Sequence record: PZ179885.1 | Strand: one strand, 5' to 3' | DNA length: 40,778 bases | DNA from: a phage | Shown: one piece after another, positions 29,697 through 40,722 of the stretch | Numbering within the stretch: position 1 is the first letter of the stretch | Layout: each line of letters begins with the position of its first letter | Program-made: the position numbers and the translations under genes | Notes under the pieces: model-generated | The model's input: the letters and a program-made list of their open reading frames with translations, nothing else | What the model was told of the DNA's origin: nothing | Database searches by the model: none

Positions 29697-29720
29697 CTTA
29701 TTGAATGGCCTATAGATTTA

Positions 29721-29743
29721 CCTTAACTATCACTATAGGGACT
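29721..29743 (+). promoter_or_regulatory. phage RNAP promoter (phi13-like), +1 G at 29738
   Basis: CCTTAACTATCACTATAGGGACT. Confidence 0.8.
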
Positions 29744-29782
29744 ATAGGCCCTTTAAGTTATAATACTTTAATAGGAGACTTT

Positions 29783-30241
29783 ATGTATATTCGCAAGGCT
29801 ACGGAACCGGATGTCCACTACTTTCTGTGGCATCTTTCAGCAGATGATATTAATGAGTGCAAAGCAAACTACGGGTCAACCGTTGGTCTCTCTGAAAGAC
29901 TGCTTAAGCACCTATCTCCGTCATCTGTGGTTTTAACGAACGGTGTAGGCGAAGTGTTTGCCTATGGTGGAAACCAAGGGGATAACGTATGGTTCTTGAC
30001 TTCCGGTCTGGTCAACAAGCTGAGACCTAAAGAGAAGCGAGAGTTCATAAAGCGTATCTCTGAGTACAGGGACTTAATGTTAGACCAATACGGGACCATC
30101 TGGAACTACGTGTGGTCAGGCAATAAGTCTCACATTAAATTCTTGAAGTTGCTTGGCGCTAAATTCCATGATGATTGGACTATCAGCCCGGTAACTGGTG
30201 AGCGTTTTCAATTATTCACTATCTCTAAGGAGGACGTATGA
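29783..30241 (+). CDS. 13: gene 13-like internal virion/assembly protein
   Basis: 152 aa from the ATG with GGAG upstream; positional assignment between genes 12 and 14. Confidence 0.6.
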   Translation: MYIRKATEPDVHYFLWHLSADDINECKANYGSTVGLSERLLKHLSPSSVVLTNGVGEVFAYGGNQGDNVWFLTSGLVNKLRPKEKREFIKRISEYRDLMLDQYGTIWNYVWSGNKSHIKFLKLLGAKFHDDWTISPVTGERFQLFTISKEDV

Positions 30242-30639
30242 CGAAGGTCTGTTTAACTTGTGGTCTGGAGAAACCAATCACTGAGTTTCACAAACAGGCC
30301 GCCAAGAAAGACCCGAACAGGCGTAAGCCTCATTGTAGAAGCTGCTGGTCCAAGATACGTAAGGATAGAACCCCAGAGCACAACAGGCGATATAACCTGA
30401 AGAGATGCTATGGAATAACACCTGAGGAGTATGATAAAATGCTTCGTGAGCAAGGTGGGACATGTGCTATTTGTCATGGTACAGAGTCTGTAGGAAGACT
30501 AGCGGTAGACCATTGCCATTCAACTGGAAAGGTTAGAGGGCTGCTATGTACCAACTGCAATCAAGCTATAGGCAAGCTGAAGGATGACGCTCAGTTGCTT
30601 AGAAACGCTATCAACTATCTGGAGGTGAACCGTGTGTGA
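30238..30639 (+). CDS. endonuclease VII-like (His-Me finger) nuclease
   Basis: 133 aa; AICHGTES...LAVDHCHSTGKVRGLLCTNCNQAIG fits the T4 endonuclease VII family; overlaps neighbouring genes at both ends. Confidence 0.8.
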   Translation: MTKVCLTCGLEKPITEFHKQAAKKDPNRRKPHCRSCWSKIRKDRTPEHNRRYNLKRCYGITPEEYDKMLREQGGTCAICHGTESVGRLAVDHCHSTGKVRGLLCTNCNQAIGKLKDDAQLLRNAINYLEVNRV

Positions 30640-31230: not shown

Positions 31231-33513
31231 ATGGCTAGTAATATTGAATCAGCTCTGGCTAATCGGACTATGGGTCGTGGCAGAGCGCCTGGTAAAACTA
31301 TCGCCGTCAACTATCAAGCAGCCAGCGTTCAGGCTCCAACTGGGGACTCAGGGCTGGCTCGTGCATTAACTAACTTCGTTGAGTCTGGGACAGGATTGTA
31401 CAAGCAGTTCAAGGACGATGAGAAGACCAGAGCTGACGAGCGTTCTAACGAGATTATCCGTAAGCTGACACCTCAGCAAAGACGTGAGGCTATCCAGAAC
31501 GGCACATTGCTGTATCAGGATGACCCTTACGCTATGGAAGCACTTCGAGTCAAGACTGGTCGTAATGCTGCCTTTGCTGTAGACGACGAGATTAACGTTA
31601 AGATTCAGAACGGTGAGTTCCGTACACGTCAGGACATGGAAGAGTATCGCCACCAGCGACTTCAGGACGCAGCTAAGTCCTATGCTGAAGAGGCGGGTAT
31701 TAACCCTACCGACGAGTTCTTCCAGCGTGGCTTCAACGATAACATCACGGACAGAAACATCGCTATCTATGGGTCCTTCAATAAGTATTTCAGTAAGCAG
31801 TCTGAAGAGACAGCAATGTTGAATACTCGTATTGAGATGAACTCATTCCTGAACGATGGCGACCTGATGCGCTCACCTGAGTCCGGTAAGACCTTCATGT
31901 CCTACCTTCGTGATGGACTGACTACTGCTGCTATTCCTTCGGACCAGCGAGCACGGGAGGTCATTACCCAGACGGTCCGTGACGCAATCCAGAAGTCAGG
32001 AGGCTCAAACTTCCTACAGCAAGTGCGAGGAGAGCGAATCACCCTTAATGGTGTGGACGCTACAGTCGAAGAGATTGTAGGACCTGATGTCTTCAACGCT
32101 GCTATTGTTGAGGCACAAGGAACTGAGTACAAGCTGGTGGCTAAGTATCAGGAAGACTTGTCGTTAGGCGTTCAGTCTGCGATTCTTCAGGATGACCCAA
32201 CCATCGGTCTGGCCCAGATTCAGAAACTCAAGGAGCAGAACAACCTGCTTCAGCCGGGTGAAGAACTAACGCCTCAGCGTCAGATGCTTATTAATGCCGA
32301 AGCCAGCTTACTGGAAGCGGTCAAGCGTAAGTCTGCTGAACAGGCAAAGGAGAACACTAAGTTAATCCAGACCCAGAACAAGCAACTAGTCATAGACCAA
32401 GTGTATCAGCGACGTCTGGCTGGAGACAACGTGTCCACCAACTATGAGGACCTTCCGGTCTCTGAATCCACAGGAGAGTTCAAGCGTTCAGACATGAACA
32501 ACTATGCGTCTGCTAAGCTACAGCAGATTGACCAGATGGACATCCCTGAGGCTGCTAAGGACGCACAGAAGGTTGCATTATTAAGAGCTGACACTAACAA
32601 CGGTCCGTTCCGTAATGCCTTCCAGACGCTGACTCAGGACGCTGCTGGTGAGTGGCAAGCTGCGGTCATCCGTGGGCAGTACGACCCAGACAAGATGCAA
32701 CGCTTCGAATCTCTTCGTCGTGCCTACACTCAGGACCCTTCAAGTTTTTCTGCTCTGTATCCTGACCAAGCTCAGTTGTTCTCTACGTTCGACCAGATGG
32801 ACAAGATGGGTCTGGACCCTCAGACGATGATTGAAGCTGATAAGCAAGCTGCAAGTCAAAGCCGTGAGATGCGCATGGAGTCAGACAAGGCGTGGCAGGA
32901 GTTGAAGAATGACTCTCGGAATAAGGACCTTTCGCGTCTTCCTACGTCTCTGGACGCAAGTGCTCGTAAGGTCTGGGACTCATGGTACTATCGTACAGGT
33001 AACGCTGACGCTGCAACTCAGCAGACTCAACGCTGGCTGAATGAGAACACCGTAACGTTCCAGTCTGAAGGTTCTGACGGTAAGTCCATCGGCATGGTGT
33101 CCAAGCACCAGCTTATGGTCGGGGATAACCCAGAGTCGTGGCAGGTGGGTCGAGACATTATCGACACCGCTCGTAAGCAGCTCATTAAGGCCAACCCTTG
33201 GGTAGTGAACTCTCAGTTGTCCGTTGTTGAACAGAACGGCTCTATCTTCCTCCAAGACGCTACAGGGACTATTCGTATTCGGTACGATAAAGAACTTGTA
33301 GGTAAACTCTACCGCGAACAACAGCAGAAGGCACAAGATGCCGCATACGCTCAGGCAGAACGTGACGCTAACAAGCGAGCGCGTATCGTCGGGACTAAAG
33401 CTGCTGGTGACAAACGTCGGGCTGACCGAGAGGCCAACATCGAGAAGCGCGGTGGGATGTATAATGACGTCTCACTGGAGGGTATCGCAAACGTACTAAT
33501 TGGTAAGGAGTAA
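31231..33513 (+). CDS. 15: internal virion protein C (gene 15)
   Basis: 760 aa (T7 gp15 is 747 aa); AGGAGG RBS; positional and size match, sequence not verified from memory. Confidence 0.85.
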   Translation: MASNIESALANRTMGRGRAPGKTIAVNYQAASVQAPTGDSGLARALTNFVESGTGLYKQFKDDEKTRADERSNEIIRKLTPQQRREAIQNGTLLYQDDPYAMEALRVKTGRNAAFAVDDEINVKIQNGEFRTRQDMEEYRHQRLQDAAKSYAEEAGINPTDEFFQRGFNDNITDRNIAIYGSFNKYFSKQSEETAMLNTRIEMNSFLNDGDLMRSPESGKTFMSYLRDGLTTAAIPSDQRAREVITQTVRDAIQKSGGSNFLQQVRGERITLNGVDATVEEIVGPDVFNAAIVEAQGTEYKLVAKYQEDLSLGVQSAILQDDPTIGLAQIQKLKEQNNLLQPGEELTPQRQMLINAEASLLEAVKRKSAEQAKENTKLIQTQNKQLVIDQVYQRRLAGDNVSTNYEDLPVSESTGEFKRSDMNNYASAKLQQIDQMDIPEAAKDAQKVALLRADTNNGPFRNAFQTLTQDAAGEWQAAVIRGQYDPDKMQRFESLRRAYTQDPSSFSALYPDQAQLFSTFDQMDKMGLDPQTMIEADKQAASQSREMRMESDKAWQELKNDSRNKDLSRLPTSLDASARKVWDSWYYRTGNADAATQQTQRWLNENTVTFQSEGSDGKSIGMVSKHQLMVGDNPESWQVGRDIIDTARKQLIKANPWVVNSQLSVVEQNGSIFLQDATGTIRIRYDKELVGKLYREQQQKAQDAAYAQAERDANKRARIVGTKAAGDKRRADREANIEKRGGMYNDVSLEGIANVLIGKE

Positions 33514-33517
33514 CATA

Positions 33518-36500
33518 ATGGCGACTCGTGGTATTCGCAATAACAATCCTGGTAACATCCGGGTAAGTAAGGACCAATGGGAAGGAATGACTGGAGATGA
33601 TGGCGCATTCGTCACCTTCGATAGTCCAGAGTCTGGCGTCCGAGCTTTAGGTAAAAACCTGCTGTCCTACGGTCGCCGAGGTTATGACTCCATCGAGAAG
33701 ATTATCAACCGATGGGCACCTCCTAACGAGAACGACACTAAGGCTTATATTGACTCAGTGGTGGCTGCAACTGGTATTCCAGCTACCCAGAGTCTCGACC
33801 TATCGAACCCGGACACCCTGTCTGCTCTGGCGCAAGCTATCAGCTTCCATGAGACAGGCTCCCGGTACGACCCTGAAGTCTATCAGAAGGGAGTCGCACG
33901 AGCACTCAATGGCATTAGCCCAAAGACTCCACCAGTAAGCGCTAACGTATTTGACGCACTCACGGAAGGACTCAAGGCTAAACCTAAAGTAGCTCTGGGC
34001 GAGAACCTTCCGACCGCTGCTGGTCTAAACATTGAGGGTCAAGCACCTGAAGCTCCCAACGAATCGTTCGGTGAGATGTTCTATAAGTCTACTGGCGATA
34101 CCATGCAGGAGCGAGAAGACCGCTCTACGTGGTTCGGTTTCGGTGCTGCTACAGAAGCTGAAGTGAAGAACTCTATGGTCGGCGTGGCTATCCGCGCTGG
34201 TCAGACCGAGGACTCACTTGATGTCATTGGCGATGTGTTCAACCCGACCCGCTGGAACAACCATAAGTGGACTCGTGAAGAGCTTGACCAGATTCGTAAC
34301 GCTGGGGTTCTGCCTCAGTATTACGGAGTCATTACTGGTGGCTCCCCTCAGAACCTGACCGAGCTTATTAACTTGGCGCTTGAGAACCAGAAGTTGGACC
34401 AAGAGAAGGCCAAGGCTGGGACTGGTGCTCAGTTAGCTGCTGGTGTGATTGGTGCTGGTGTAGACCCTCTGACATACGTTCCTATCGCTGGACAGGTTGG
34501 TAAAGGCGGTAAGCTGGTCAACAAGATGTTCACCGTGGCTGCTCAATCTGGAGCACTGGCTGGTGTGTCCGAGATGGCCCGTACCTCAGTGGCTGGGGGT
34601 GATGCTCATGTGGCTGAAGCTATCCTTGGTGGTGCTCTCTTCGGTGGTGGTATGACTGCTATCGCTGATGGGTTAGGCAGAGCCTTAGGTCGCAACACTA
34701 ATGAGTTTGCTGGCCCAGCTACACGTCTGGAAGCTCGTGAGACCGCTCGTAACGTTGATGGTCAGGACCTGTCTCGTCTCCCTATTCAGGAAGGTGAGCA
34801 GACCTTTAGTCATCAAGGCGTTAAGTTCGCTGACGTTCCGAATGAGCCGGGTAGTGTACGACTTGAAGATGGATCAATCCTGATTGGTGAGAACCCTCTT
34901 AACCCTAAGACACGTCAAGTCTTTGACGAAGTGATTGAGCCGGAACGTGCCGCTGCTGGTGTGAACCTTGGTGGACTTACCGAGATTGGCCTGAAGCTGC
35001 TTCGGTCTGAGAACCCTGAGATTCGTGGAGTAGCTGCTGACTTAGTGCGTTCACCGACTGGTATGCAGTCTGGGGCCTCAGGTAAAATAGGGACAACTGC
35101 GTCAGACGTGTTCGAGAGACTTCGTGCTGTGGACCATCGGTTCTACAACGACATCGACGATGCGGTTACTGAGGCACTCAAGGACCCGTACTTCCAGACA
35201 GCATTCTGGCGAGACTCTGGCGCATTCCGTCAGGACATCTACCAGCGTGTGTCTATGGCTATCGAAGATGGTAGCGGAAACCTGAAGGCTGAACTGACTC
35301 CGGGAGAACTGAAAGTCTATGACCTACTGAAGAACCAGTTCGACGCCAAGCGTGAGATGATGGAGAACCCAGCGATGTTTGGTCGTCCAGACGCTCAGTC
35401 TATCTTTCCGGGCAGCCGCTTCAAGGGAACCTACGTCCCGCATGTGTATAGCAACCAGATGAAGGAGCTGTACATCAAGGAGCTTGGGAGTCCAGAGGCA
35501 CTACAGGAGGCCATCAAGAAGTCATGGTTGACCAGCTATGCGTCTCGACCTGAGGTCAAGAAACGTGTGGACGAGGCACTCTTAGAGGCTGACCCTACGT
35601 TGACTCCAGAAGGACTTGCGGCTGCGGTCGATAAGTACGCCAACGATAAGGCTTATGGTATCTCTCACACCGAGCAGTTCGAGCGTTCATCCGTAATGGA
35701 GGAGAACATCAACGGTCTGGTGGGTCTGGAGAACAACAGCTTCCTTGAGGCTCGTAACCTGTTCGACAGCGATATGTCAATAGTTCTTCCTAATGGTCAA
35801 ACCTTCAGTGTCAACAACCTGCGTGAGTGGGACATGGACAAGATTGTCCCGGCATACAACCGTCGAGTTAATGGTGACATTGCTATTATGGCTGGTACAG
35901 GCAAGACAACGAAAGAAATGAAGGACTTGGTTGAGACCATGATGAACAAGGCTGGTGATGACGGTAAGTTGAAAGGTGAGGTATCTACCTTACGTGACAC
36001 CTTGAAGATTCTAACTGGTCGCGCTAGACGTGATGGTGCTGATGATGCTGCCTTCGCTACCGTGATGCGCACAATGACAGACCTATCGTTCTTCGCTAAG
36101 AATGCCTACATGGGTGTTCAGAACTTAACGGAGATTGGTGGTATGCTGGCCCGTGGTAACGTCCGTGCAATGCTGCATGGCGTCCCTATTTTCCGTGACC
36201 TAGCCTTCCGTAACAAGAAGGTAGGGGCCTCAGAGATTAAGGACCTGCATAATGTTATCTTCGGTAAAGAATTGGATGACTCAATCCGTCCGTCTAAACA
36301 GGATGTTATCGACCGTCTGCGATCTTACAGCTCCCTCAGTCGTGGTACAGCTACAGCTCTGGGGACTGCCAAGTATTACACTGGTGAACTTGCAGTACGC
36401 TCTCCGTTCACTAAAGTCCTCAACGGTACGACCAACTACCTGTTAGATGCTGGACGTCAAGGCTTCCTGTCTGACATCGTGGAACATAGCCTGACTGGTA

Positions 36501-37405
36501 GTAAGCGTAAGTTCGATGACCGCTGGCTGAAGACCGCTGGTATATCTGACGAGCAGTGGAAGGGCATTAAGTCCCTAATCCGTGAGTCAGTGACTCGTGG
36601 TCCAGACGGGAAGTATACCATCAAGGATAAGAAGGCGTTCAGTCAGGACCCAAGGGCTATGGACCTGTGGCGTATGGGTGACACCATCGCTGACGAAACG
36701 TTACTCCGGCCCCACAAGCTGTCAAACATGGACGCCAAGGCTTATGGTCCTCTCGCTAAGACTGTCCTTCAGTTTAAGAACTTCGTCATCAAGTCCATCA
36801 ATGGACGTACCATGCGAACCTTCTATAACGCCACGAAGAACAACCGAGCGATGGACGCTGCTCTGTCCACTGTGATCTCTATGGGTCTTGCTGGTATCTA
36901 CTACATGGCTCAGGCGCATGTCAAGGCTTACGCTATGCAGGATGGTCGAGACCGTGACTACCTCAAGCAAGCTCTGGACCCGACGATGATTGGATATGCG
37001 GCTCTATCACGTAGTTCACACCTTGGTGGACCACTTGGGGTAGCTAACATTTTGGGTGGCATAGCTGGGTATGAGGACACTAAGATGCTCCGCTCGTCTA
37101 TCCTACCTCGTTCACCTACAGAGAAGCCTGAACGTGCTATCACATATGGTGCGGCTACAAGTGACCCTGTGATGAATGTTGTTGGTAACTTCCTGGAGCA
37201 GGTTCCAGCTTTCGGATACGCTGCTAACGTTGGTGCTTCGGCTTATAACTTGGCTGGCTACCTAAAGGCGGATACTCGTGTCAATGAGCGGGACTACATG
37301 ACCGGGATGTATAACACGTTCCGTGAACTGGTTCCGAACGACCCAATTACCCAGAAGTTGCTGCTTGGAACGTTTGAGGAGCAAGGTATCCACATCAAGG
37401 ACTAA
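33518..37405 (+). CDS. 16: internal virion protein D (gene 16)
   Basis: 1295 aa from the ATG after AAGGAG; from about residue 200 collinear with T7 gp16 (TWFGFGAA, TGGSPQNL, ARETARN, DLVRSPTGMQSGASGK, NGDIAIMAGTGKTTKE, LLNGTTNYLLDA, MDLWRMGD, ALSRSS, ELVPNDP); the N-terminal domain differs. Confidence 0.95.
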   Translation: MATRGIRNNNPGNIRVSKDQWEGMTGDDGAFVTFDSPESGVRALGKNLLSYGRRGYDSIEKIINRWAPPNENDTKAYIDSVVAATGIPATQSLDLSNPDTLSALAQAISFHETGSRYDPEVYQKGVARALNGISPKTPPVSANVFDALTEGLKAKPKVALGENLPTAAGLNIEGQAPEAPNESFGEMFYKSTGDTMQEREDRSTWFGFGAATEAEVKNSMVGVAIRAGQTEDSLDVIGDVFNPTRWNNHKWTREELDQIRNAGVLPQYYGVITGGSPQNLTELINLALENQKLDQEKAKAGTGAQLAAGVIGAGVDPLTYVPIAGQVGKGGKLVNKMFTVAAQSGALAGVSEMARTSVAGGDAHVAEAILGGALFGGGMTAIADGLGRALGRNTNEFAGPATRLEARETARNVDGQDLSRLPIQEGEQTFSHQGVKFADVPNEPGSVRLEDGSILIGENPLNPKTRQVFDEVIEPERAAAGVNLGGLTEIGLKLLRSENPEIRGVAADLVRSPTGMQSGASGKIGTTASDVFERLRAVDHRFYNDIDDAVTEALKDPYFQTAFWRDSGAFRQDIYQRVSMAIEDGSGNLKAELTPGELKVYDLLKNQFDAKREMMENPAMFGRPDAQSIFPGSRFKGTYVPHVYSNQMKELYIKELGSPEALQEAIKKSWLTSYASRPEVKKRVDEALLEADPTLTPEGLAAAVDKYANDKAYGISHTEQFERSSVMEENINGLVGLENNSFLEARNLFDSDMSIVLPNGQTFSVNNLREWDMDKIVPAYNRRVNGDIAIMAGTGKTTKEMKDLVETMMNKAGDDGKLKGEVSTLRDTLKILTGRARRDGADDAAFATVMRTMTDLSFFAKNAYMGVQNLTEIGGMLARGNVRAMLHGVPIFRDLAFRNKKVGASEIKDLHNVIFGKELDDSIRPSKQDVIDRLRSYSSLSRGTATALGTAKYYTGELAVRSPFTKVLNGTTNYLLDAGRQGFLSDIVEHSLTGSKRKFDDRWLKTAGISDEQWKGIKSLIRESVTRGPDGKYTIKDKKAFSQDPRAMDLWRMGDTIADETLLRPHKLSNMDAKAYGPLAKTVLQFKNFVIKSINGRTMRTFYNATKNNRAMDAALSTVISMGLAGIYYMAQAHVKAYAMQDGRDRDYLKQALDPTMIGYAALSRSSHLGGPLGVANILGGIAGYEDTKMLRSSILPRSPTEKPERAITYGAATSDPVMNVVGNFLEQVPAFGYAANVGASAYNLAGYLKADTRVNERDYMTGMYNTFRELVPNDPITQKLLLGTFEEQGIHIKD

Positions 37406-37469: not shown

Positions 37470-39653
37470 ATGTCCACGATTACACAATTCCCTTCAGGAA
37501 ACACTCAGTACAGGATTGAGTTCGACTACCTAGCCAGAACTTTTGTTGTTGTTACGCTGGTGAATAGCTCTAACCCTACCATGAACCGTGTACTGGAAGT
37601 TGGTCTAGATTACAGATTCCTTAATCCAACGATGATTGAGATGTTGGTTGACCAATCAGGTTTCGACATCGTTCGTATTCACCGTCAGACTGGAACTGAC
37701 TTAGTGGTAGACTTCAGGAATGGCTCAGTGTTGACAGCTAGTGACCTGACCAATGCAGAGCTTCAGGCTATCCATATTGCAGAAGAAGGTCGAGACCAAA
37801 CGGTTGACTTAGCGAAGGAATATGCCGATGCTGCTGGTAGCTCTGCTGGCAACGCTAAGGATAGCGAGGACGAAGCACGACGAATCGCTGCGAGTATCAA
37901 GGCAGCTGGTAAAATTGGCTATATTACCAGTCGCTCCTTCGAGAAAGGCTTCAACGTTACAAAATGGAACGAGGCCCTACTATGGGAAGAGGATGGTGAT
38001 TATTACCGCTGGGATGGTACGCTTCCAAAGAACGTTCCTGCTGGTTCAACTCCTGAATCATCTGGTGGTATTGGGCTGGGTGCATGGGTTAGTGTCGGTG
38101 ATGCGTCACTTAGAGCAAACCTGTCTGATAGTGATGGCGCTAAAAACATAGGCAGTGGGAAAAGAAATTTGCTTGACAGAAATAATGATATTAAGCACTC
38201 TGGTGACTTCTCTACCTTGCAAGCCGCGATAGATGCATCGTTAGCTAAGAACGACTTAATTGTTTCTCCGGGTGAGTACTCAGAGTCGATTACTATTGGA
38301 AACGCGCAGTTAAAAGGTGTTGGCGGGGCTGTAGTACTAAAACCACCAACAGGCTTTACAAACACTGTTCAGGTCAATTTATCTACACCTCATTGGCAAT
38401 TCCGCCATAGTGGTGGTTTTGCTATAGATGGTTCTGGGACAACCGGGGGCGTAGGCATTAGTTTTGACCCGTCAGACCAATATTCTGGCCGACATAATTT
38501 TAGTGATTTATACATCCACAACATCAACAAGGCCATTCAGAAGCCTTCCGGGAACATCGGTAATACATGGAGACATATTGGGGTATCTACGTGTGATTGG
38601 GGGTATTATGCGGTTAGTGGCTCAGAGATGCATTGTGGTGCCGATACACTCTACAATTTTCACTTCGACGGCATCTCCACCTATGCAGTCTACCTAAACG
38701 GCACTGTCGATAACGGTGGGGTGGGCGCATGGTGGCTTAAAGACTCCATTATTGAGTCCTCCGGCGGCGGCGGGATATACTTAAAAAACAAGCCTGGAGA
38801 CTGTCCTACATCCCCATGCGGGGTATCCAATGTATGGATGGAAGCGATCGCAACATCACCGGCTGTTAATGTAGACGGTGTGGCGCAGAAACCACGAGTT
38901 CTCAAGTTGGTAGACACCGCGATATTCTTTGCTGAGTATTCTTATCTCAACAACATCGAGCTGTCCAACTCAAACTTAGTAACTTATGGTTGCCGTTTTG
39001 ACAACGCTGATGGTAATCAGGATATTGTCGTGGATGCACAAAGTACCATTGTAGCCCATGACGTGTATTTAAACGGCAGTTCCGGAAAGGACGTTATTGT
39101 AGAGTCTATCGCATCGCAATCTGCAACGATAGCTACCACAAACTTATCTCTGCGAGGAAATTTAACTAGAGGGAGAGTGTTTAACACACCAACTGGTAAT
39201 AAATTGCAGGCTATTACGTTTGATTCCGGTAGCCACGAGTTTTCTGGTAGTGCTACAGTTAGCGGATCAATTGTATCTGACGGACTTCACGCCGCTACAT
39301 GTACCGAATTTTCATTCCCGGGGGCTGGTGTGTTCGAGATGGTAGCTTCAAGAACGACAATAACATCAGGAAGATGGTACGTGTGGGGTGTTAACTCACG
39401 CCTACAATCTGGCTTGGCGGACATTAGTATAACGTCTGGTATTACTATGGGTAGTGTTTACACAAAGCCCGGGGAGTGGATTAGCACTTTCGGTGTAGGC
39501 AAGGCATCTTCCACTGGCATTGTTTCGCTATACATTTCCACAGGAGGAGGTTCAGGAGCTACGGTCAGATTCAGTGACTTTTTCATCGCTGAGTTTACGA
39601 CGCAGGCTCAGGCTTTAGCTTTCGCCAATACCAGAATGGCACTGAGTAGTTAG
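37470..39653 (+). CDS. 17: tail fiber / tailspike (gene 17) with beta-helix C-terminal domain
   Basis: 727 aa; the first ~150 aa resemble the T7 gp17 N-terminal domain (FDYLARTFVVVTL, DYRF, LQAIHIAEEGRD); the remainder is Gly/Ser/Asn-rich with repetitive beta-strand character typical of right-handed beta-helix tailspikes. Confidence 0.93.
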   Translation: MSTITQFPSGNTQYRIEFDYLARTFVVVTLVNSSNPTMNRVLEVGLDYRFLNPTMIEMLVDQSGFDIVRIHRQTGTDLVVDFRNGSVLTASDLTNAELQAIHIAEEGRDQTVDLAKEYADAAGSSAGNAKDSEDEARRIAASIKAAGKIGYITSRSFEKGFNVTKWNEALLWEEDGDYYRWDGTLPKNVPAGSTPESSGGIGLGAWVSVGDASLRANLSDSDGAKNIGSGKRNLLDRNNDIKHSGDFSTLQAAIDASLAKNDLIVSPGEYSESITIGNAQLKGVGGAVVLKPPTGFTNTVQVNLSTPHWQFRHSGGFAIDGSGTTGGVGISFDPSDQYSGRHNFSDLYIHNINKAIQKPSGNIGNTWRHIGVSTCDWGYYAVSGSEMHCGADTLYNFHFDGISTYAVYLNGTVDNGGVGAWWLKDSIIESSGGGGIYLKNKPGDCPTSPCGVSNVWMEAIATSPAVNVDGVAQKPRVLKLVDTAIFFAEYSYLNNIELSNSNLVTYGCRFDNADGNQDIVVDAQSTIVAHDVYLNGSSGKDVIVESIASQSATIATTNLSLRGNLTRGRVFNTPTGNKLQAITFDSGSHEFSGSATVSGSIVSDGLHAATCTEFSFPGAGVFEMVASRTTITSGRWYVWGVNSRLQSGLADISITSGITMGSVYTKPGEWISTFGVGKASSTGIVSLYISTGGGSGATVRFSDFFIAEFTTQAQALAFANTRMALSS

Positions 39654-39727: not shown

Positions 39728-39922
39728 ATGATTGAGTTAGACTTCAAGAATGAGGTCCTTAAAGCCTCTCCTATCGTCGGGACCGCTGCGGCTGATGGTG
39801 CCAGTCGGTTCTTCTTCGGACTTACACTAAACGAATGGTTCTACGTTGCAGCTATCGCGTACACCGTTGTCCAGATTGGTGTGCTAGTCTACAAAACGAT
39901 TAAAGGAGGTGGTAAAACATGA
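39728..39922 (+). CDS. 17.5: holin (gene 17.5)
   Basis: 64 aa; LDFKNEVLKASPIVGT...FFGLTLNEWFYVAAIAYTVVQIG is nearly identical to T7 gp17.5. Confidence 0.9.
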   Translation: MIELDFKNEVLKASPIVGTAAADGASRFFFGLTLNEWFYVAAIAYTVVQIGVLVYKTIKGGGKT

Positions 39923-40182
39923 CGCAGATGGACTTAGAGAAGTTCCTCTTGATGCTAGATACTGAACGTGCTCGACTCATGCTGCAAGACTTGCGGGATG
40001 ACACTAAGCGTTCACCTCAGCTTTACAACGCCATTGAGAAGCTACTGGCTCGTCACAACTTTGTGTTAAGCAAGGTGTCTGTTGACGAGAAGACGCTTGC
40101 TGATATGGAGGCCCTGAACGCAGAGTACGATAAGGTGCTTTCAGCTACTGAGGATAATGACACCGGGTATGGTGTTCAATAA
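39919..40182 (+). CDS. 18: terminase small subunit (gene 18)
   Basis: 87 aa; LMLDTERARLMLQDL...RSPQLYNAIEKLLARH matches T7 gp18. Confidence 0.9.
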   Translation: MTQMDLEKFLLMLDTERARLMLQDLRDDTKRSPQLYNAIEKLLARHNFVLSKVSVDEKTLADMEALNAEYDKVLSATEDNDTGYGVQ

Positions 40183-40284: not shown

Positions 40285-40722
40285 ATGCTCGAATTTTTTA
40301 AGAGAGCGGCTCCGTGGTTACTTGCAGCAGTGATGTTTGCTGGTGGCTACCACACCGCTAACAATAAGTGGGAGGCTAAGGTCAATGAAGAATACATCTC
40401 GAATCTTAAGGCATCGGAAGATACAAGGCTTGCTGTCCAAGCTGAAGTCAACAAAGTGTCCAAACGGTTTCAGGACGAAATGTCCTCGCTGGAAGGCAGC
40501 ACTGATAGGATTATTGCTGACCTTAACCGCGATAACAAGCGGCTGCGCGTCAAAGTCAACACCTCAGGTCTCACCGAGTCAGATGTCAGTCGATGCTTCC
40601 CTAATGGTAGAGTCGAACTACACCCAGAAACTTCTAAAAGTCTTATCCGAATAACTCAGGAGGCAGACCTTAAGGAGAAGGCGCTTCAGGACACAATAAG
40701 GAGGCTCCAAGGTGTTAAGTGA
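40285..40722 (+). CDS. 18.5: Rz-like spanin, inner-membrane component (gene 18.5)
   Basis: 145 aa; MLEFF..., N-terminal transmembrane segment, SLEGSTDRIIADLNRDNKRLRVKV and ALQDTIRRLQ match T7 gp18.5. Confidence 0.92.
   Translation: MLEFFKRAAPWLLAAVMFAGGYHTANNKWEAKVNEEYISNLKASEDTRLAVQAEVNKVSKRFQDEMSSLEGSTDRIIADLNRDNKRLRVKVNTSGLTESDVSRCFPNGRVELHPETSKSLIRITQEADLKEKALQDTIRRLQGVK
40337..40654 (+). CDS. 18.7: Rz1-like outer-membrane lipoprotein spanin embedded in the +1 frame of Rz (start uncertain)
   Basis: Signal-like KAALIGLLLTLTAITSG followed by Cys and a Pro-rich STPQVSPSQ; the ORF-track start at 40337 is probably too far upstream. Confidence 0.55.
   Translation: MLVATTPLTISGRLRSMKNTSRILRHRKIQGLLSKLKSTKCPNGFRTKCPRWKAALIGLLLTLTAITSGCASKSTPQVSPSQMSVDASLMVESNYTQKLLKVLSE

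Follow-up and report, generated by a model that had tools for sequence, protein, structure and literature searches.

An Enc34-type domain occupies the place of the SLT lytic transglycosylase domain at the N-terminus of gp16 in a K1F-like podophage

That a muralytic module can be carried on an ejection protein is textbook knowledge. Here we describe the module found at the N-terminus of the ejection protein gp16 of a K1F-like, T7-family podophage of the genus Kayfunavirus (sequence record PZ179885.1; the window analysed is the whole stretch of 40,778 nucleotides). In phage T7 the corresponding protein passes from the capsid core down the tail and crosses the outer membrane by the gp14 pore, and its N-terminal domain, which is periplasmic and forms part of the gp15-gp16 tunnel, cuts murein (PMC8954989). 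The lytic transglycosylase (LT) domain of T7 gp16 comprises residues 1-156 and is followed by the 'molecular tape' (residues 157-228); LT activity is needed chiefly on highly cross-linked murein (PMC8954989).

The second system of relevance is the endolysin ORF39 of Hafnia phage Enc34. Its catalytic domain (PDB 7Q47; CDD family PHA02564) lyses E. coli, P. aeruginosa and Hafnia cells with a permeabilised outer membrane (PMC8943055). In the Enc34 structure Glu131 is the counterpart of the catalytic Glu of the GH73 and GH23 families, Trp79 and Tyr95 are conserved residues of the groove, and the core is permuted: the helix bearing the Glu comes after the other core helices, not before them (Cernooka et al., PMC8943055). 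M4Lys of Salmonella phage BSPM4 is a homologue of the ORF39 catalytic domain. M4Lys lacking its transmembrane domain degrades purified murein and strips N-acetylglucosamine (GlcNAc) off muropeptides, an activity that was read as N-acetylglucosaminidase, with a hint of endopeptidase (PMC7143992).

The gp16 of the K1F-like phage is a chimera of these two types. Its C-terminal ~1170 residues are a T7-type ejection protein consisting of the gp15-binding tape, the inner-membrane segment and the cytoplasmic hub, whereas its N-terminal ~125-130 residues are an Enc34/PHA02564-type domain, probably an active glycoside hydrolase, which occupies the place of the SLT lytic transglycosylase domain of T7 gp16. 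The protein has both hallmarks of a T7-type internal virion protein D, the collinear body and the gene order 14-15-16-17 (the neighbouring open reading frames encode gp13, gp14, gp15 and the tailspike), and it matched phrog_342 at E 0. Identity to K1F gp16 was 97.5% over the full length, and identity to chain L of PDB entry 9VVP (9vvp_L, 'Gp29') was ~99% (phmmer, PDB sequences). The 5-kb stretch around the gene showed 95-97% DNA identity to many Escherichia and Salmonella Kayfunavirus genomes.

The site at which gp16 and T7 gp16 part was located by pairwise alignment. With BLASTP the two proteins were 53% identical over phage residues 125-1295 and T7 residues 152-1315 (1182 columns), and the sequence upstream did not align; in the phmmer comparison with PDB sequences the span aligned with T7 gp16 (7eyb_I, 6yt5_G) was only 125-1294 and 152-1314, respectively. 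BLASTP of the N-terminal 200-225 residues of both proteins aligned only phage residues 125-198, with T7 152-220. Identity in 25-residue windows was 16-28% (noise or linker level) up to residue 200, and 48-72% beyond it, with one window at 36% (residues 426-450). An earlier note on this DNA had claimed that gp16 is collinear with T7 gp16 from about residue 200, and that the first ~140 residues do not match. The collinearity is present, but it begins at about residue 125, residues 125-200 being a weakly conserved linker after which identity rises above 50%, and the figure of ~140 has to be corrected to ~124-131 residues for the exchanged module, because the alignment starts at 125. The swap boundary (phage 125, T7 152) coincides with the structural limit of the T7 LT domain.

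No SLT domain was found at the N-terminus of gp16. Pfam SLT (PF01464) matched residues 15-127 of T7 gp16, used as control, at E 6.6e-31, but gave no match in residues 1-200 of the phage protein with the threshold relaxed to E 1. Neither the whole of gp16 nor its N-terminus had a relevant hit in Pfam or NCBIfam; the sole Pfam line, HCNGP (E 0.25), was dismissed as a chance match. Comparison by hhalign of the domain-family profile with T7 gp16 residues 1-155 gave a probability of 0.15%, and a tblastn search for the T7 SLT domain in the full 40.8 kb of the window detected no SLT (best E 7.8). The SLT-type catalytic Glu, which lies in the first helix in an E-S motif (E37 of T7), has no alignable counterpart in the N-terminus of gp16. 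The sole conserved acidic catalytic candidate is Glu112, close to the C-terminal end of the domain, whereas T7 E37 is near the start, and the domain does not have a GH23 fold with the canonical helix order. The phmmer, BLASTP, Pfam and hhalign results bear out the earlier view that this N-terminus is unlike the T7 SLT domain. What would have spoken for a merely diverged SLT domain, an alignment with the catalytic Glu conserved, was not seen: no SLT relationship is detectable, and the conserved Glu is at 112.

The N-terminus of gp16 does have a relative of known structure. Residues 3-123 were aligned by phmmer with residues 7-140 of 7q47_A (E 1.5e-14), and PHROG families containing the Enc34-type domain matched at E 1e-8 to 7e-56. 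Structure prediction of residues 1-150, proposed in the earlier note as a check, gave a model resembling 7Q47. This AlphaFold2 model, built from a 40-sequence family alignment (A1), had a mean predicted local distance difference test score (pLDDT) of 86.7 and a predicted template modelling score (pTM) of 0.80, and was essentially all-helical, with predicted helices at residues 37-53, 59-66, 74-85, 98-113 and 119-130. In a Foldseek search of the PDB, 7Q47 alone was significant (E 3e-9, template modelling (TM) score 0.76). As modelled, the domain resembles the alpha-lobe of lysozyme, corresponds to Enc34 helices a2-a6, and is without a beta-lobe. Foldseek did not return 9VVP from the PDB, that entry being either later than the library date or without a modelled N-terminal domain.

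The sequence features of the family are present as well. In the signature motif GIRNNNPGNIR, residues G5, R7, N8, N10, N13 and R15 are invariant in A1, and I6, N9, P11, G12 and I14 are conserved in at least 90% of the sequences. HMMER alignment identified counterparts of all three Enc34 residues, Trp66, Tyr77 and Glu112 (Table 1). A few rows of A1 have Tyr in place of Trp66, and Glu112 is placed by the model at the C-terminal end of the predicted helix 98-113. The residues quoted in the earlier note, MATRGIRNNNPGNIR... and AISFHETGSRYDP (gp16 residues 107-119), were located where it had put them; residues 1-144 correspond to positions 33518-33950. We regard the identification of the gp16 N-terminal domain as an Enc34-type muralytic module as almost certain. 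The suggestion that a different cell-wall module serves genome ejection in this phage thereby gains support, from membership of the muralytic Enc34/PHA02564 family and from the conserved Glu, Trp and Tyr; a module that only binds the cell wall is less likely.

The domain is under purifying selection. The ratio of nonsynonymous to synonymous substitution rates (dN/dS) between the phage and K1F was 0.058 for residues 1-131, 0.081 for the linker and 0.048 for the body. The value for the domain is close to that for the body, which indicates that the module is kept as stringently as the remaining part of gp16.

The distribution of the domain was surveyed by tblastn, profile and HMMER searches. The Enc34-type domain was found by tblastn in 752 phage records; at an identity of at least 60% it was present in ~223 phage records, mainly Kayfunavirus and allies on Escherichia, Salmonella, Enterobacter, Citrobacter and other hosts. 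The SLT head was found in 1,223 phage records, the listed examples being T7 and Yersinia, Klebsiella, Erwinia and Pseudomonas T7-like phages. Beyond Kayfunavirus, gp50 of the Minipunavirus Lilpapawes shares the whole gp16 architecture (48% identity over the full length, N-terminus included), and in the Ampunavirus (Okabevirinae) Bp-AMP3 the domain stands at the N-terminus of a gp16-like protein. Further carriers are endolysins of chi-like siphophages, gene V of PM2, Aeromonas 'tail injection transglycosylase' proteins, and Pseudomonas phage proteins annotated as structural, capsid/scaffold or endolysin proteins. PHROG profiles placed the domain at varying positions of large virion proteins, tape-measure and 'tail injection transglycosylase' families being among the matches.

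The closest copy outside the genus (56% identity) comes from the epsilon15-like phage SPN1S, in which it occupies residues 350-479 of an internal protein of 937 aa. This suggests recent module exchange between unrelated enterobacterial podophage lineages. The SPN1S protein (Salmonella phage SPN1S_0017, L005 2900-5713) is labelled 'head protein', and its gene adjoins those of two internal virion proteins. In an exhaustive HMMER scan 11,941 cluster representatives (clusters at 50% identity) were found at E <=1e-3 and 5,693 at <=1e-10; these proteins were either free-standing (130-230 aa) or large, with the domain in an N-terminal, central or C-terminal position. One of the proteins seen, a metagenomic protein of 762 aa (P0123), has four separate stretches that match the 131-aa domain, and may be a tandem array. 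The two large protein searches served solely to estimate how widespread the family is, and the Kayfunavirus gp16 cluster was absent from them, its representative probably having a different N-terminus. The module is widespread and mobile, and the pattern is one of cassette exchange at a domain boundary, not of divergence in place.

From these data a course of events at infection can be proposed. Because the family is muralytic (Enc34 lyses permeabilised cells and M4Lys removes GlcNAc), the domain most likely opens the peptidoglycan during assembly of the ejectosome, acting as a glycoside hydrolase. By this scheme ejection would carry gp16 out of the capsid core, along the tail and across the gp14 pore to the periplasm, where the N-terminal domain would locally cleave the glycan strands of murein; the opened murein would then let the gp15-gp16 tunnel span the periplasm and the DNA pass. 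In line with the proposal for Enc34, Glu112 would serve as the general acid, and Trp66 and Tyr77 would hold the sugar in position. Judged by analogy to M4Lys and to the GH73-like neighbours in structure, the domain probably cuts the GlcNAc-beta-1,4-N-acetylmuramic acid bond, as expected of an N-acetylglucosaminidase, in which case the products would be hydrolytic and not 1,6-anhydro-muropeptides. We consider it likely that the domain is an active glycoside hydrolase used in ejection.

Several points weigh against this proposal. We found no enzymatic assay of any gp16-borne copy in the literature. The catalytic role of Glu131 in Enc34 rests on superposition and not on mutagenesis (PMC8943055), and a substrate complex of the Enc34 enzyme was not obtained. 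Thr113 (33854-33856) makes the local motif HETG in gp16, where at least 90% of A1 has Asn (HENG); this seems to be a trait of the subclade, since the nearest relatives (P0002 and P0003) share ETG. The hint of endopeptidase activity in M4Lys, together with a figure legend that reads 'N-acetylmuramidase' (PMC7143992), makes the bond specificity no more than probable. Finally, according to Moak & Molineux 2000, as summarised in PMC8954989, the LT activity of T7 is dispensable except on highly cross-linked murein. This conditional dispensability means that the domain could serve mainly as a structural part, forming the 'wings' of the tunnel in the periplasm.

A rival reading makes the domain a lytic transglycosylase of the SLT (GH23) type, strongly diverged but orthologous to the N-terminus of T7 gp16. 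It would fit the identical position within an orthologous protein and is implied by many GenBank labels ('peptidoglycan lytic exotransglycosylase'); moreover, Cernooka et al. argue that the Enc34 catalytic domain shares a very remote ancestor with GH23 and GH73. However, because the helix order of Enc34 is permuted relative to both families, any such kinship would be only at the level of the lysozyme-like superfamily. Pfam SLT recognises T7 gp16 and not the phage protein, neither BLASTP nor phmmer aligned anything ahead of residue 125, the hhalign probability was negligible, and the catalytic Glu is at 112 instead of 37 in a core with permuted helices. The nearest module outside Kayfunavirus, moreover, lies mid-way in an unrelated epsilon15-like protein, which points to module exchange and not to divergence in place. 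A diverged SLT domain is contradicted at the family level and is hardly credible.

Two other alternatives accept the family assignment and differ on function. The domain might be a hydrolase of other specificity, either a muramidase (lysozyme) or a bifunctional enzyme combining glycosidase and endopeptidase: an M4Lys product detected by high-performance liquid chromatography-mass spectrometry fits cleavage between D-glutamate and meso-diaminopimelic acid (D-Glu-mDAP), the legend mentioned above names an N-acetylmuramidase (PMC7143992), and the authors of the Enc34 study cannot exclude endopeptidase activity (PMC8943055). On the other hand, the loss of GlcNAc from mutanolysin-generated muropeptides indicates that M4Lys is a glucosaminidase (PMC7143992), in structure the gp16 domain comes closest, after Enc34, to GH73 glucosaminidases, and a peptidase-like catalytic constellation was not described for Enc34 (PMC8943055), so that we judge this alternative unlikely. 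Alternatively, the domain could be inert in gp16, with a murein-binding or architectural role in the wings of the gp15-gp16 tunnel or in packing of the capsid core. The N-terminal part of T7 gp16 indeed forms such structural wings and its activity is conditionally dispensable (PMC8954989), Thr113 replaces a near-invariant Asn, and the absence of enzyme assays of gp16-borne copies from the literature found counts in the same direction. Yet the three proposed active-site residues and the entire GIRNNNPGNIR motif are kept, and tblastn with the T7 SLT domain gave no sign of a further muralytic module among the virion proteins of this phage. The low dN/dS of the domain also fits a structural role, but such a role does not in particular require that catalytic residues be retained. 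We hold an inert domain to be quite improbable, and retain as the preferred interpretation an active hydrolase that opens murein during ejection.

The coordinates of gene 16 and of its parts are collected in Table 1. The stop codon of gp15 (33511-33513) lies directly ahead of the gene 16 ATG at 33518, and TTG at 33500 is merely the mechanical first start of the open reading frame. Both 9vvp_L and K1F gp16 begin with MATRG.

Table 1. Gene 16 and the elements of its product in PZ179885.1
Feature	Position	Strand	Remarks
Gene 16 (internal virion protein D, ejectosome component)	33518..37405	+	1295 aa + stop codon
Shine-Dalgarno AGGAG	33507..33511	+	6 nt before gene 16 ATG; read from sequence
Enc34-type (PHA02564) peptidoglycan glycoside-hydrolase domain, residues 3-123	33524..33886	+	Folded part to ~residue 131 (nt 33910)
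Signature motif G-I-R-N-N-N-P-G-N-I-R, residues 5-15	33530..33562	+	Family alignment A1
Trp66 (RWAPP), counterpart of Enc34 Trp79	33713..33715	+	HMMER alignment
Tyr77 (KAYID), counterpart of Enc34 Tyr95	33746..33748	+	HMMER alignment; invariant in A1
Glu112 (FHETGS), counterpart of Enc34 Glu131 (proposed catalytic)	33851..33853	+	HMMER alignment; at least 90% in A1
Linker, residues 125-200	33890..34117	+	Collinear with T7 gp16 152-220 (gp15-binding 'molecular tape'); ~28-30% identity
gp16 body, residues 201-1295	34118..37405	+	Homologous to the membrane-insertion and cytoplasmic-hub part of T7 gp16

Some features of the neighbouring genes were also noted. An open reading frame of the Endonuclease VII type (133 aa, 30238-30639, + strand; PF02945, E 8e-28) lies between genes 13 and 14 and overlaps both; the K1F genes 13 and 14 directly overlap each other and have no such open reading frame between them. 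The open reading frame has the look of a homing endonuclease inserted into the structural operon. The gp13 open reading frame (29705-30241, + strand) is 178 aa long as listed, versus 156 aa in K1F, with the Pfam Gp13 domain starting at residue 75; the true start of gp13 may be a downstream ATG. The tailspike (37470-39653, + strand; 727 aa) has the N-terminal adaptor of T7 tail fibres (PF03906) followed by a Tail_spike_N domain of the TSP1/Gp66 type (PF18668). It is not the 1064-aa endosialidase of K1F, and receptor or capsule specificity thus differs from that of K1F despite the 97% identical gp16. Further downstream are a gene for a small DNA-packaging protein (39919-40182) and, just before the end of the window, an Rz-like spanin gene resembling gene 18.5 (40285-40722, + strand; PF03245, weak match). 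The large terminase gene, expected after these genes, was not seen in the examined part (30000 to end), so a circular permutation with respect to the T7 map is possible, as is a contig boundary at the end of the window.

The present annotation of these proteins does not reflect the domain they carry. Many Kayfunavirus GenBank records name gp16 'peptidoglycan lytic exotransglycosylase' or 'transglycosylase', a label apparently transferred from T7 through the homologous gp16 body and contradicted by the domain evidence. The RefSeq name of K1F gp16, 'internal virion protein with endolysin domain', is a generic one from PHROG that is also given to T7. Since no Pfam-A or NCBIfam model detects this family of ~12,000 representatives, the Enc34-type domain is routinely missed; the listed family homologues have no precomputed Pfam domain, and the sources call them 'structural protein' or 'hypothetical protein'.

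A cryo-electron microscopy entry (9VVP) exists for a near-identical protein, and we found no paper on its 'Gp29'. Nor did we find a paper linking Enc34/PHA02564 to internal virion proteins or to Kayfunavirus gp16, or one describing an Enc34-type head that replaces SLT in Kayfunavirus gp16, in a search that did not cover the K1F genome paper (Scholl & Merril 2005). In the passages searched, the table of virion-associated lysins in Latka et al. 2017 lists T7, T3, phiYeO3-12, SP6 and K1-5, and no entry for K1F gp16 was found there. Both halves of the protein are already known, the T7-type gp16 body on the one side and the Enc34/PHA02564 domain (activity 2020, structure 2022) on the other. Family and role are both known, though they have been poorly recognised, and the finding is chiefly useful for the correction of annotation and as a natural head-swap experiment.

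Models of ejection in the T7 family assume an LT head, whereas a sizeable group of phages (~223 records and the Minipunavirus gp16) uses another enzyme family. The two head types offer a natural test of whether it matters by which chemistry murein is cut. As a tentative generalisation, K1F-like phages may use a hydrolytic N-acetylglucosaminidase and not an LT, and the muralytic 'head' of podophage ejection proteins may be a freely exchangeable cassette; we regard this as possible, with doubt slightly outweighing belief. If it were true, the type of head could adjust the efficiency of infection to murein that differs in modification or cross-linking, and deliberate head swaps would be possible when T7-family phages are engineered. 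A compact (~130 aa) muralytic module for Gram-negative murein might also be of use in engineered lysins and in head-swapping of therapeutic T7-like phages.

Compared with the described systems, gp16 of this phage is essentially the same protein as K1F gp16 and 9VVP chain L, the N-terminal domain included, with no difference of substance. T7 gp16 (PDB 7EYB, 7K5C, 6YT5) has the same layout, with a muralytic module of about equal size at the N-terminus and the gp15-binding linker after it, but its module is SLT/GH23 (PF01464, catalytic E37), whereas that of the phage is unrelated in sequence, has another helix order and is probably hydrolytic. T7 mutants altered at E37 of gp16 show a delay at low temperature and on cells in stationary phase. 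In SP6 gp36 and K1-5 gp38, which are of the lysozyme type, the muralytic module is likewise carried on an internal or ejection protein; it belongs to another family and is placed differently. The GH73 enzymes (FlgJ, TM0633, C. difficile Ecd09610) show no detectable sequence similarity to the gp16 domain, which differs from them in the missing beta-lobe and in the permuted order of helices. In Enc34 ORF39 the domain is the N-terminal part of a 26-kDa lysis-cassette endolysin with a C-terminal membrane anchor of two helices, and the family motif is HENG in place of the HETG of gp16. The Enc34 enzyme acts from within and late, whereas the copy described here heads a 1295-aa ejection protein and would act from without and early.

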